The notes under the pieces were generated by a model. The model was not told the origin of the DNA. It worked only from the letters and a program-made list of their open reading frames with translations, and made no database searches. A stretch of DNA of 64,000 nt from a virus. Shown here one piece after another: positions 47,218-49,529 of this stretch. How positions within the stretch are numbered: the stretch's first letter is position 1; every line of letters starts with the position of its first letter. Where the stretch lies: the UHGV virus genome UHGV-1483955. One strand, written 5' to 3'. Position numbers and translations under genes: made by a program.

Positions 47218-47724
47218 TTGAGTATTTTCAATAAACACGCACACCAGGAACGTCCGTATATCGTCATAGTTGATATTGATGGAACAATATCAGAGGCAAC
47301 TGAAGACAGACTGCATTTGCTTCCGCCACCAGGTAAAGGTGCATTAACAAAGGACTGGAACGAGTTTAATCTCGCCTGTGACACCGATACTCCCATCACT
47401 CCAGTTATTGATATGGTGCGCCAGTTATTTAACGTTTACACGGTCTGGTTTGTAACCGGGCGCTGTGAGATCGCAAGGGATAAAACACGAGCCTGGCTGC
47501 GGAAGTACGTAACAAACGGGGCTGAGCCTTTGCTATCTATGCGTCCTGCCACCGATGACAGAAATGACGGCCCAGCAAAGATTGATCTCCTTAAGAAAAT
47601 TGGTCTAAGTAAAATCGCGTTCGCGCTGGAAGATAAGATTGATGTGGCGCGTGTTTTCAGGAGGCACGGCGTGCTTACGTTAATGGTCAGGGAGTATGAA
47701 AATGCGCTTCTTCATCAACAATGA
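47218..47724 (+). CDS. HAD-superfamily phosphatase-like protein
   Basis: Motif I VDIDGT; TTG start with AGGAGG 4 nt upstream. Confidence 0.5.
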   Translation: MSIFNKHAHQERPYIVIVDIDGTISEATEDRLHLLPPPGKGALTKDWNEFNLACDTDTPITPVIDMVRQLFNVYTVWFVTGRCEIARDKTRAWLRKYVTNGAEPLLSMRPATDDRNDGPAKIDLLKKIGLSKIAFALEDKIDVARVFRRHGVLTLMVREYENALLHQQ

Positions 47725-47740
47725 TTGCTCTAATAAATCT
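47724..47740. promoter_or_regulatory. C1 operator-like site
   Basis: ATTGCTCTAATAAATCT. Confidence 0.6.
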
Positions 47741-47822
47741 TGATTTTTAAAACGGAGAAAGTGAAAATAAAAACATGCCGCAAGGCGCGGCATGTATCCA
47801 ATCAATCACAGGAGCTGAAAAT

Positions 47823-47909
47823 ATGAACACGGCATTCAAAATCATTATGGCCGCGATCTATTTCTGGCTGTTCTCTATCACTTTTGGCGGCATCGTCGCA
47901 CATGGGTAA
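47823..47909 (+). CDS. 28-aa hydrophobic peptide
   Basis: MNTAFKIIMAAIYFWLFSITFGGIVAHG; AGGAG 8 nt upstream; preceded by hairpin CATGCCGCAAGGCGCGGCATG. Confidence 0.3.
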   Translation: MNTAFKIIMAAIYFWLFSITFGGIVAHG

Positions 47910-47918
47910 GGGGGATGC

Positions 47919-48647
47919 ATGAAAGGCGAAGTGAAAGAGCGCGGCATGATTTTCAACGATGAGATGGTCCGGGCCATCCTCGAAGGAAGGAAAACGCAGA
48001 CGCGGCGGATAATGAAAAATCAGCCTGCGGAAGTTGGTCCAGAAGCACCAGTGATGGTTAGAAAAATTGGTGCAGGTTTTCAGTGGTACGGGGCTGATGG
48101 TGTAAGCAGTGTTTTCAATTGCCCATTTGGTATCGTCGGCGATCGAATTTGGGTTCGTGAAACATGGGCGATATTAGGCAATGAGGATGGTTGCAGTGTG
48201 GACTGGAACGACAACCTTTGTCGTGGCGATGAGAAGAACGCAGCAAGGATTTATCGGGCCAGTTGCGAGCAAAAACCTGGTGATTACGGCTTATGGTCGA
48301 TACCCGATGATGCCGACTGGAAACCTCACACTGTGAATGAAAAGTTTGATGGTGGGTGGCGTCCATCAATTCACATGCCGCGATGGGCATCACGCATTCT
48401 GTTGGAAATTACCAACGTGCGCGTTGAACGGTTGAACGATATCAGCGAATGCGATGCAAGGGCTGAGGGCGTTCCGCCTGCTGGAAGTTTGCTTCCTGAT
48501 CACCCGGGAACATTCCTTACTCCCAAGGGGGATTTCGCAATGGCCAAGGTTGCGTTCCAGCGCCTGTGGGAATCCATCTATGGTGAAGAAAGCTGGAACG
48601 CTAATCCCTGGGTGTGGGTAATCGAGTTTAAGCGCATTCAGGAATAA
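47919..48647 (+). CDS. ASCH-like domain protein
   Basis: MIFNDEMVRAILEGRKTQTRR matches ASCH N-terminal pattern (xILxGxKTxExR). Confidence 0.5.
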   Translation: MKGEVKERGMIFNDEMVRAILEGRKTQTRRIMKNQPAEVGPEAPVMVRKIGAGFQWYGADGVSSVFNCPFGIVGDRIWVRETWAILGNEDGCSVDWNDNLCRGDEKNAARIYRASCEQKPGDYGLWSIPDDADWKPHTVNEKFDGGWRPSIHMPRWASRILLEITNVRVERLNDISECDARAEGVPPAGSLLPDHPGTFLTPKGDFAMAKVAFQRLWESIYGEESWNANPWVWVIEFKRIQE

Positions 48648-48650
48648 ACC

Positions 48651-49529
48651 GTGAGTATGCATCAAGTCGTCAGCTTTTCAGGTGGACGAACATCGGCTTA
48701 TCTCGTTCATCTGATGGAAGCACAGCGAAAAGCTGGCGCTAGCGTCCATTTCATTTTTATGGATACCGGCTGTGAACATCCTCTGACGTATCGCTTTATT
48801 CGTGAGGTTGTGAAGTTCTGGAACGTACCGCTAACGGTGTTGCAGGTCGATATAAATCCAGAACTTGGGCAGCCAAATGGTTATACGGAATGGGAACCAA
48901 AGGATATTCAGACGCGAATGCCGGTGCTTAAACCGTTTATGGACATGGTTAAAAAGTACGGTACGCCATACATCGGCGGCGCGTTCTGTACCGACAGGCT
49001 AAAACTCACCCCTTTCACGAAATATTGCGATGACCATTTTGGGCGAGGGAATTACATCACATGGCTCGGTATTCGTGCGGACGAACCCCGTAGGCTGAAA
49101 CCGAAACCGGGCGTCCGGTATCTTGCCGAACTGTCAGATTTTGATAAGTCGGATGTTATCCGGTGGTGGCGAAAACAACCTTTTGATTTGCAAATCCCGG
49201 AGCACCTCGGGAACTGTGTTTTTTGCATCAAAAAGTCAACGCAAAAGCTGGGGCTTGCATGTAAAGACGAACCAGGTCTGATGCGGGTTTTTAATGAACT
49301 GGTTACAGGCAAACACGTCAGGGATGGTCATCGCAGAACAGGTAAAGACGTTATGTACCGTGGCCACCTGACGCTTGACGGGATTGCCAGAATGTATGCC
49401 GACAGTGACTACAGAAATTTGTATCAGGCGATGGTGCTGGCCAAGCGGTTTGATACTGGTTCGTGTTCCGAATCATGTGAAATCTGGGGTGACCAATTGG
49501 AGTTGAAATTCGAAGAGGTAGTGGAATGA
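48651..49529 (+). CDS. PAPS-reductase-family (PP-loop) protein
   Basis: PP-loop VVSFSGGRTSAYL. Confidence 0.7.
   Translation: MSMHQVVSFSGGRTSAYLVHLMEAQRKAGASVHFIFMDTGCEHPLTYRFIREVVKFWNVPLTVLQVDINPELGQPNGYTEWEPKDIQTRMPVLKPFMDMVKKYGTPYIGGAFCTDRLKLTPFTKYCDDHFGRGNYITWLGIRADEPRRLKPKPGVRYLAELSDFDKSDVIRWWRKQPFDLQIPEHLGNCVFCIKKSTQKLGLACKDEPGLMRVFNELVTGKHVRDGHRRTGKDVMYRGHLTLDGIARMYADSDYRNLYQAMVLAKRFDTGSCSESCEIWGDQLELKFEEVVE

Follow-up and report, generated by a model that had tools for sequence, protein, structure and literature searches.

Three adjacent accessory genes of a P1-like phage-plasmid, pap, pmgT and ninC, and their proposed roles

The window analyzed in this study, a DNA stretch of 64,000 nt in total, is a P1-like phage-plasmid, and pap, pmgT and ninC are found in it as three tightly packed ORFs on the + strand. 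The explanation that we consider probable for the whole arrangement is a hypervariable early accessory region, in which the three genes represent independent cargo with separate proposed roles and not the steps of a pathway. Mosaic recombination would have set pap, pmgT and ninC side by side as single-gene cargo, and the early accessory region would be expressed on removal of the C1 repressor. A sequence-only reading had placed the ORFs at exactly the coordinates given below and had regarded them as a putative nucleic-acid modification cluster. The nucleic-acid part of that proposal was retained, since each of the three proteins is predicted to act on nucleic acids or nucleotides and the NinC family is associated with anti-Dnd genetics and with fusions to DNA methyltransferases (MTases), but the joint cluster had to be given up because the trio is not co-conserved. 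As a cluster the genes are of little importance, being a mosaic of named accessory genes. The main gain is a sharper and testable lead on NinC, the product of a lambda gene without established function.

Gene content of the region

All three ORFs are genuine genes with homologues numbering in the thousands. Their identities are known (pap and pmgT from P1, ninC from lambda), and these labels are already included in the current RefSeq annotation. Lytic growth is possible without pap or pmgT in P1 and without ninC in lambda (PMC10695390), and such non-essentiality is compatible with accessory or counter-defence roles. A blastn comparison of the window with P1 gave 98-99% identity as far as position 48613, followed by an accessory block of 6.84 kb (48614..55453, no strand assigned) which is missing from reference P1 and contains the final 10 codons of pmgT, ninC, orf67, orf79, orf226 and Ead/Ea22-like genes. 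Reference P1 has pap and a truncated pmgT but lacks ninC, as do most P1-like elements. The orf67 and orf79 genes (49526..49961, + strand; PHROG 1226 and 1344) overlap the stop codon of ninC, share a transcript with it and accompany it in Stx phages too. A small hydrophobic ORF (47824..47909, + strand; 28 aa from ATG, with an AGGAG ribosome-binding site) is located between the C1 operator described below and pmgT, and a 'membrane protein' is annotated in phage SJ46 under the stretch that matches it.

The pap gene (47218..47724, + strand) has a TTG start and a GAGGAGG ribosome-binding site and encodes a stand-alone HAD phosphatase of PNKP type with 168 aa, 97-98% identical to P1 Pap. Motif I, D19-I-D21-G-T23 (DIDGT in the translation), occupies positions 47272-47286. 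Pfam PF25109 HAD_PNKP matched the protein at 46 bits (cutoff 27.6; 7.4e-12) and PHROG 415 over its full length (1e-56), in agreement with the earlier description of a HAD-type phosphatase with DxDGT. Candidates for the other HAD motifs, picked by eye in the sequence, are T80-G-R82 for motif II (S/T), K121 for motif III (K) and E138-D139 for motif IV (acidic pair). No kinase domain was found in the 168 aa, which lack a GxxxxGK[ST] motif and were matched by the phosphatase domain alone, and the database names '3'-phosphatase, 5'-polynucleotide kinase' overstate the content of pap. PADLOC and NCBIfam searches returned no match for pap or for pmgT. The top PDB matches of pap were de novo TIM barrels and were discarded as a compositional artefact. 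Pap would hydrolyse a phosphomonoester, most plausibly the 3'-phosphate of a nucleic-acid end or of a nucleotide.

The pmgT gene (47919..48647, + strand; 242 aa) represents the intact form of its family. Its octapeptide G23-R-K-T-Q-T28-R-R30 (47985-48008) conforms to the ASCH pattern GxKxx(E/T)xR in its YqfB-type form GxKxxTxR and falls in the GKTR type of the ASCH GKTR/GKER subgroups. In a set of 63 diverse relatives, K25 and R30 never vary, and G23 and T28 show at least 90% conservation; E81 and E183 are invariant. The PUA-like beta-barrel fold of the ASCH domain was recognized in PmgT; the structure model has low confidence overall (pLDDT 58) and leaves an insert (81-158) unmodelled. Pfam PF04266 ASCH did not match this pmgT even at E<=10, and it gave weak matches in 31 of the 63 relatives (best 1.2e-4). 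Nothing was found when family profiles from two alignments were searched against PDB chains, phmmer yielded an ASC-1 match at chance level only, and hhalign against a YqfB sequence aligned the octapeptide alone, with a probability of 6-17%. The ASCH assignment, which coincides with the ASCH-like label given earlier, is thus based on fold, motif and weak Pfam matches in relatives. A literature search for 'PmgT' returned unrelated acronyms only. The catalytic triad of YqfB consists of Lys21, Thr24 and Glu74 (PMC6972931), and K25, T28 and E183 of PmgT, aligned by eye, are proposed as its equivalents, together with the conserved R30. PmgT, a YqfB-like 'GKTR' ASCH protein, would probably act as a small hydrolase on modified cytosine (N4-acyl-C) in RNA or DNA, or bind it.

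The third gene, ninC (48651..49529, + strand), encodes a NinC orthologue, a PAPS-reductase-family PP-loop protein of 292 aa from GTG or 290 aa from an alternative ATG at 48657, which is 80% identical to lambda NinC over residues 3-287 and 96% identical to Stx-phage NinC. The PP-loop S10-G-G-R-T-S15 is encoded at 48678-48695. Among 31 relatives, S10, G11, G12, R13 and S15 do not vary, and at least 90% have T14 at the position of the canonical Asp; with Thr in place of this Asp in SGGRTS, ATP pyrophosphatase activity of NinC is not assured. The conserved cysteines are C113, C126, C189xxC192 and C272xxxC276. Pfam PF01507 PAPS_reduct matched NinC at 37.7 bits (cutoff 22.5), over profile positions 3-66 of 175 only, and Foldseek with the AF2 model (pLDDT 86.6) retrieved CysH, APS reductase, MnmA, LarE and TtuA with probabilities of ~1.0 (E 7e-5 to 3e-3). 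With these matches the PP-loop PAPS-reductase-family label and its SGGRTS motif, already noted in the sequence-only reading, were borne out. The SspD model of PADLOC matched residues 5-148 at 1.8e-13 and DndC matches were weak. NinC fell far short of the equivalog models of both CysH (NCBIfam NF002537, 21.9 bits versus a cutoff of 154) and DndC (TIGR03183, 17.8 bits versus a cutoff of 290.4).

Transcription control and distribution of the trio

A pattern search for the C1 operator identified 13 sites in the window, where 0.31 were expected. An operator-like pair at 45583-45599 (+) and 45632-45648 (-), which corresponds to P1 OpmgRa/OpmgRb (Op86a/b) according to the pattern search and the P1 annotation at homologous positions, sits upstream of pmgR-pmgS. 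A terminator-like hairpin (47165..47193, + strand; 11-bp stem with 6 GC pairs, and a T-run) is located between the pmgS stop and the ribosome-binding site of pap. The C1 operator Op88/OpmgT, ATTGCTCTAATAAATCT (47724..47740, + strand), has one consensus mismatch and is a protein_bind site in the P1 annotation; situated between pap and pmgT, it shares nucleotides with the stop codon of pap and with the -35 box of the pmgT promoters. By homology to the P1 annotation, promoters P1pmgT and P2pmgT were assigned to 47725-47768. Where the pmgT transcript is predicted to begin, a GC-rich hairpin (47773..47795, no strand assigned) can be read as a terminator on the - strand only. No + strand terminator was found between pap and pmgT, so that read-through co-transcription is possible, and the 3-nt interval between pmgT and ninC contains neither promoter nor terminator. 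As pap and pmgT are separated by an operator with its promoters, the trio is C1-regulated but split over two control regions. Pap would be the tail of the pmgR-pmgS unit, behind the terminator-like hairpin, and the Op88-controlled promoters would drive pmgT, ninC and the small genes downstream. The earlier claim of one C1-controlled transcription unit was therefore upheld in its C1 regulation and not in its single unit.

A tblastn matrix of pap, pmgT and ninC was constructed for 160 IMG/VR loci, in which every combination of the genes was encountered. Pap and pmgT occurred without ninC at ~35 loci and ninC without pmgT or pap at ~65, and ninC was paired with four pmgT alleles (100, 83, 69 and 45-46% identity), on a P1 backbone or not, with pap beside the two on the P1 backbone only. 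The complete arrangement was present in 34 of 1022 matching plasmids and 39 of 5426 E. coli genomes, and lambda and Stx phages contain ninC without pmgT and pap. Co-conservation of the trio, on which the cluster had been made to depend beforehand, is thus absent. A pmgT-family gene was found within 6 kb of ninC in just 2 of ~38 species-level loci, and at two Xenorhabdus loci members of both families occur in another order, no more than 1.5 kb apart. The junction sequence is identical in all pmgT-ninC adjacencies, which indicates a single ancestral juxtaposition that was inherited, not a repeated independent association. The PP-loop/ASCH pairs that had been said to recur in phage accessory regions do recur as adjacent genes, but not as independent associations. 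In many relatives without ninC, an intact pmgT stands beside an in-frame ninC deletion scar of ~80 nt, and in the P1-like variant L016 ninC comes straight after another gene, without pap and pmgT. In P1-like plasmids and in Stx phages, ninC behaves as a cassette subject to gain and loss. The pmgT family comprises 45,690 cluster representatives, mostly without ninC, and a literature search on ASCH and PAPS reductase recovered no paper connecting them.

Given these distributions, it is very improbable that the trio constitutes one pathway of nucleic-acid modification, encoded by a single operon under C1 control, such as one in which a phosphatase, a reader and a PP-loop enzyme lead to one modified nucleoside. 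Contiguity on one strand, C1 regulation and predicted chemistries on nucleic acids or nucleotides would suit such a pathway, but it is strongly disfavoured by the gene distribution, by the operator and promoters inside the trio and the hairpin before pap, and by reference P1 with its pap, truncated pmgT and lack of ninC. A two-gene functional module of PmgT and NinC, in which the ASCH protein binds or edits a base or nucleic acid adenylated or thiolated by NinC and pap is unrelated, is unlikely. The 3-nt spacing without intervening signals, the adjacency retained with all four pmgT alleles in P1-like and lambdoid contexts and the two Xenorhabdus loci speak for it, and the retained adjacency leaves some room for pairing. 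The common junction, however, points to one founding event, no member of the pmgT family stands beside the great majority of ninC genes (those of lambda, Stx and Vibrio phages; 36 of ~38 species-level loci), the huge pmgT family does mostly without ninC, ninC has been cleanly deleted beside intact pmgT in many elements, and the partner of the Vibrio PAPS-Dam protein discussed below is not ASCH-like. We also think it quite unlikely that PmgT, as a GKTR-type ASCH hydrolase with a large conserved insert, and NinC, as a variant PP-loop protein whose cysteines would suit an Fe-S cluster, form an unrecognised phage two-enzyme system which adds a mark of sulfur or acyl type to phage DNA or host tRNA cytidine, or edits one, and thereby evades Dnd/Ssp or other modification-sensing defences. 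If such a system existed, the MTase-NinC-MTase fusions would be the single-polypeptide version of that strategy, in P1-like and lambdoid phages. Independent cargo in a mosaic accessory region remains the reading we prefer.

Proposed counter-defence role of NinC and rival functions

NinC shares 55% identity over 283 aa (E 2e-110) with the PAPS domain of p0018 from Vibrio phage 44E38.1. When p0018 and p0019 were transferred together, a phage was able to infect a Dnd-carrying host (Piel et al.; bioRxiv 10.1101/2021.05.05.442762; cited in PMC13551039). NinC is a close homologue of this protein, the sole phage PAPS-domain protein genetically implicated in defeating Dnd restriction. The p0019 protein was considered as a relative of ASCH/PmgT and rejected (DUF6475; hhalign probability 0.1). 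Fusions of the types C5-MTase+NinC+N6A-MTase and NinC+Dam occur in the NinC family, and in phage Oslo a Dam gene lies directly upstream of the NinC-family gene. A Pfam census of 150 neighbouring ORFs at 38 species-level NinC loci recovered common phage early and recombination genes, with Dam (5) and C5 methylases (5) among the commonest families and one ArdA, in Pantoea; no constant partner was detected in this census. In the window the neighbours of ninC are pmgT, orf67 and orf79, and no dnd genes are found beside it.

Given its homology with the p0018 PAPS domain and the DNA methyltransferases to which the family is repeatedly fused or adjacent, NinC would most likely be a counter-defence, DNA-directed enzyme. 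It may be described as a DndC/SspD-like PP-loop protein, the conserved cysteine set of which would suit an Fe-S cluster, and it most likely works on DNA or close to it, where it would shield the phage genome, on entry or induction, against restriction linked to phosphorothioates (Dnd/Ssp-type). Should NinC counter phosphorothioate-based immunity, this would be relevant to which E. coli and Salmonella hosts are open to P1-like phage-plasmids and to Stx-converting phages.

According to its database product name, NinC would instead be a true PAPS/APS reductase, an auxiliary metabolic gene product raising host sulfate assimilation, and this we find hardly credible. The Pfam PAPS_reduct match, CysH and APS reductase as best fold matches and the PHROG category 'moron, auxiliary metabolic gene and host takeover' agree with it. 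CysH, however, has lost the PP-loop-type SGGxxS motif, which NinC retains, and the ECGLH-type C-terminal motif expected of a PAPS reductase was not seen in NinC by eye. The Pfam match is moreover confined to a part of the profile, the NCBIfam CysH model scores below its cutoff, the fusion partners are DNA methyltransferases and not sulfur-metabolism genes, and the 55%-identical domain is genetically tied to Dnd escape. For pap, a role as a T4 PNKP-type 3'-phosphatase in RNA end-healing against host anticodon nucleases, together with host ligase or kinase activities and independent of pmgT and ninC, is conceivable though doubtful. It would fit the Pfam HAD_PNKP and PHROG 'polynucleotide kinase' families, weak similarity to 4xrp, the RNA-repair protein Pnkp1, and the wide spread of stand-alone homologues (1056 phage records, those sampled being mostly from lytic Klebsiella or E. 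coli phages). Against it stand the absence of a kinase domain from pap, the absence of a ligase or kinase gene among the ORFs examined in 44000-53000, and the fact that P1 does not need pap on K-12.

Comparison with known systems

With the phosphatase domain of T4 polynucleotide kinase/phosphatase, pap shares the DxDGT motif, with TGR, K and ED as candidates for the remaining HAD motifs, and its Pfam match exceeds the gathering score, but it consists of that domain alone, without the P-loop kinase. Set beside E. coli YqfB (103 aa) and other ASCH N4-acetylcytidine amidohydrolases, PmgT is longer, with 242 aa, and contains an insert of ~75 residues (81-158), which is strongly conserved among enterobacterial members and unmodelled; outside the motif its sequence match to YqfB is not significant, and amidohydrolase activity of PmgT is putative.

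DndC and SspD belong to the same superfamily as NinC and have the N-terminal PP-loop Rossmann-like domain in common with it, but NinC has SGGRTS rather than SGGxDS, and, in contrast to Dnd/Ssp systems, no cysteine desulfurase, DndD/E or SspB/C partner is encoded near it. The p0018 gene of phage 44E38.1 is a phage early accessory gene, as is ninC here, and the match between them spans the whole PAPS-like domain, including the PP-loop and all conserved cysteines. In p0018 this domain is fused to a Dam methylase, whereas NinC in the window is a single-domain protein without Dam; p0019 (DUF6475) has no counterpart beside ninC, and the anti-Dnd effect was shown for p0018 and p0019 as a two-gene block. 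The NinC proteins of lambda, Stx2 and other lambdoid phages show the same single-domain architecture of ~290 aa, and the identities of 80% (lambda) and 96% (Stx phages) extend over the full length. In lambda, ninC follows NinB in the nin region, whereas here it is placed in a P1-like phage-plasmid directly after pmgT and under a C1 operator; in Stx phages its downstream neighbours are orf67 and orf79, as in the window.

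Setting and transcription signals of the locus

The window is a P1-like phage-plasmid; its segment 43001-48613 was 99% identical to phage P1 by blastn, the first two genes of the locus being named pap and pmgT there, and an identical 2.3-kb segment is carried by E. coli plasmids of ~96 kb (e.g. NZ_CP067401.1). Three plus-strand ORFs are present within 47218-49529, as the sequence-only reading had described, and their RefSeq product names are "phosphatase domain-containing" (pap), "ASCH domain-containing" (pmgT) and "phosphoadenosine phosphosulfate reductase domain-containing" protein (the NinC orthologue). 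All functional assignments at the locus draw on homology, fold and context. Lytic growth on laboratory E. coli is possible without ninC, pap or pmgT, all three of which are dispensable (PMC10695390).

The stretch 48614-55453 (6.84 kb) is missing from reference P1 (position 6614 of the retrieved locus), in which pmgT runs from about codon 232 directly into the counterpart of window position 55454. Ead/Ea22-like coiled-coil ORFs follow the NinC cassette at 50590-51465 (Pfam Ead_Ea22, 4e-19) and, by sequence resemblance only, at 51749-52483 and 52480-53070; together with orf67, orf79 and orf226 they form a block that resembles the "ea" genes in the early-left region of Stx phages, here set in a P1 backbone. 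The GC content is 0.35-0.38 at 10001-12000 and ~0.48 in the rest of the window.

A consensus pattern search for operator-like 17-mers of the P1-type repressor C1, with at most 3 mismatches, returned 13 sites in the window against 0.3 expected; besides those near the locus, examples lie at 11624, 13294, 28249, 31525/31536, 41959 and 63904, and the set fits a complete P1-type immunity regulon. The three genes had been placed in one C1-controlled transcription unit, but the signals define two control regions instead. One site, at 47724-47740 and with a single mismatch, shares bases with the stop codon of pap; it corresponds to P1 Op88/OpmgT, for which the P1 annotation predicts two promoters, P1pmgT and P2pmgT. 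A strong terminator-like hairpin (47165-47193, plus strand, 11-bp stem followed by a T-run) separates the pmgS stop from the ribosome-binding site of pap. By these internal signals, pap sits at the tail of one C1-controlled unit, behind the terminator-like signal, whereas transcription of pmgT-NinC-orf67-orf79 and of the genes further on begins from another. The operator-like pair at 45583/45632 corresponds to P1 Op86a/b, assigned to pmgR and pmgS in the P1 annotation, which gives no promoter for pap. No plus-strand terminator was detected between pap and pmgT, so read-through is possible. Within the downstream unit, pmgT and NinC are separated by 3 nt, and NinC and orf67 overlap by ATGA.

The pap-pmgT spacer contains a GC-rich hairpin (47773-47795) with the features of an intrinsic terminator for the minus strand only; on the plus strand it would form the extreme 5' end of a transcript from P1pmgT and might be an mRNA-stabilising stem. 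Between Op88 and pmgT, a small hydrophobic plus-strand ORF (MNTAFKIIMAAIYFWLFSITFGGIVAHG, 47824-47909) with an AGGAG ribosome-binding site is unannotated in P1, and phage SJ46 has a "membrane protein" annotated under the matched stretch.

The pap and pmgT products

The pap gene (47218-47724, plus strand, 168 aa) has a TTG start and a GAGGAGG ribosome-binding site. Its label as a HAD-type phosphatase with a DxDGT motif was borne out (D19-I-D21-G-T23; Pfam HAD_PNKP, 46 bits with a cutoff of 27.6), and its match to PHROG 415, a "polynucleotide kinase" family, spans the full length. The protein is the phosphatase domain alone, without the P-loop kinase, so that "3'-phosphatase, 5'-polynucleotide kinase", a name it is often given, claims too much. 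In 1056 phage records homologues of ~150-170 aa were found, the sampled phages being mostly lytic Klebsiella or E. coli phages, including T1-like phages and podoviruses. Pap is probably a separate small enzyme, predicted to act on phosphomonoesters.

The pmgT gene (47919-48647, plus strand, 242 aa) belongs to a very large family, for which a search at E<=1e-3 gave 45,690 cluster representatives. The window PmgT had no match in a Pfam search, and ASCH was the sole Pfam family recurrently matched by diverse relatives (31/63, best E 1.2e-4). Near the N-terminus, the octapeptide G23-R-K-T-Q-T28-R-R30 follows the "GKTR" pattern of YqfB, and K25, R29, R30, E81, E183 and G184 are invariant in 63 diverse members. 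The octapeptide and the recurrent ASCH matches support the earlier "ASCH-like" label. Overall confidence in the AlphaFold model is low (pLDDT 58), with core residues 10-80 and 159-240 at 70-87 and the insert 81-158 unmodelled. The catalytic triad of YqfB consists of Lys21, Thr24 and Glu74, and its oxyanion hole is provided by Arg26 (PMC6972931); 19 diverse ASCH proteins are reported to remove ac4C from tRNA (2026 preprint). Taken with the conserved residues, these data make a hydrolase on N4-modified cytosine a reasonable prediction for PmgT, which is probably a separate small enzyme on modified cytosine.

Homologues of pmgT occur in the early accessory regions of many temperate phages; that of Paracoccus phage Shpa adjoins a ParB-like gene, with a DNA methyltransferase nearby. 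The window protein is the intact form, ending at the family's end. Since P1 passes from about codon 232 into unrelated sequence, its annotated 309-aa PmgT is a deletion fusion with an aberrant tail, in which the last ASCH strand is lost.

Co-occurrence of the three genes

NinC and PmgT served as queries to collect 160 IMG/VR loci, and every combination of the three genes was found among them: pmgS-pap-pmgT without NinC in about 35, NinC without pap or pmgT in about 65 (Stx-type and others), and pmgT with NinC in 14. A P1-like variant (L016) has NinC but neither of the other two. Of 1022 matching PLSDB plasmids, 34 had the exact trio, as did 39 of 5426 complete E. coli genomes, and across the 160 loci pap accompanies pmgT or NinC on the P1 backbone only. 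The genes are thus not co-conserved, the outcome that the sequence-only reading had named as refuting its cluster, and a pathway joining pap, pmgT and NinC is very improbable.

A functional pmgT-NinC pair deserves somewhat more weight and is still unlikely. The two genes adjoin in 14 of the 160 loci, with pmgT alleles of 100, 83, 69 and 45-46% identity and in both P1-like and non-P1 contexts, so the proposed recurrence of PP-loop/ASCH pairs stands as an observation; the recurrence is, however, by descent. The junction sequence is the same in all pairs (the final ~45 nt of pmgT, ACC, GTGAGTATG), which indicates one ancestral juxtaposition that recombination inside pmgT has spread. With one genome per species, a pmgT-family gene lay within 6 kb of NinC in 2 of ~38 informative loci and was adjacent in neither. 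An in-frame NinC remnant of ~80 nt (codons 1-21 plus the last 6) persists between pmgT and orf67 in many NinC-less P1-like or lambdoid relatives (L084 10727-10812; phage vB_EcoM-813R1, L002 6648-6730; L138 10685-10767), and L105 and several Stx2a phages keep 3' NinC fragments alone; NinC has been removed by deletion repeatedly.

Matches to NinC of 80% identity were also retrieved from GTDB contigs (L171-L181) of "Pseudomonas", "Oceanobacillus", "Shewanella", "Bradyrhizobium", "Kitasatospora" and further assemblies. They look like contamination by lambda control DNA, several of the contigs being ~48.5 kb long and named with a coverage close to 1x.

The region is best read as an accessory island that is derepressed when C1 is lifted and is assembled from independent cassettes. 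All three genes belong to named, annotated families and their arrangement already exists in dozens of sequenced plasmids, so that there is little unusual in the finding. What it modestly adds is a testable lead on NinC and, on the side, the deletion fusion in P1 pmgT and the scar left by NinC deletion.

NinC and its proposed link to DNA modification

The NinC orthologue (48651-49529, plus strand; PGAP start ATG at 48657) shares 80% identity with NinC of lambda and 96% with "NinC" of Stx2 phages, where orf67 and orf79 follow as in the window. It carries a variant PP-loop, SGGRTS, at residues 10-15, and a Pfam PAPS_reduct match (37.7 bits versus 22.5), limited to the profile's N-terminal third, supports its assignment to the PAPS-reductase family. 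Its AlphaFold model has high confidence (pLDDT 86.6) and matches CysH/APS reductase, MnmA, LarE and TtuA. The best defence-system model was SspD (1.8e-13, N-terminal half). Conserved cysteines (C113, C126, C189xxC192, C272xxxC276) would suit a candidate Fe-S cluster and/or catalytic tail. Equivalog models for CysH (21.9 bits, cutoff 154) and DndC (17.8 bits, cutoff 290) were rejected.

NinC is fused to Dam in Vibrio phage 44E38.1, Providencia and Erwiniaceae, to C5-MTase and D12 N6A-MTase in Mixta tenebrionis (L203 4402-7698), and to C5-MTase and Dam in Sodalis sp. (L207 4396-7530); Salmonella phage Oslo has a separate Dam gene directly upstream. The Mixta and Sodalis ORFs are giant (~1050-1100 aa), with the NinC/PAPS-like domain between C5-cytosine and N6-adenine methylases, and look like multi-activity DNA-modification proteins. 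In Pantoea sp., the NinC homologue is preceded at ~1.5 kb by an ArdA antirestriction gene (L182 3988-4503), consistent with NinC in anti-restriction neighbourhoods.

The best-supported reading of NinC is a phage DndC/SspD-like PP-loop protein, linked by fusion and genetics to DNA modification and evasion of phosphorothioate-based restriction. It might act by modifying phage DNA with host sulfur-transfer partners, by mimicking DndC, or in another way. Phage PAPS reductases have been listed as DndC/SspD homologues in anti-defence hotspots (2026 NAR paper, PMC13551039). Across 283 aa, the window NinC has 55% identity with the PAPS domain in p0018, a PAPS-reductase domain plus Dam protein of Vibrio phage 44E38.1, and p0018 moved together with the adjoining p0019 into a related phage enabled infection of a Dnd-protected host (Piel et al., bioRxiv 10.1101/2021.05.05.442762).
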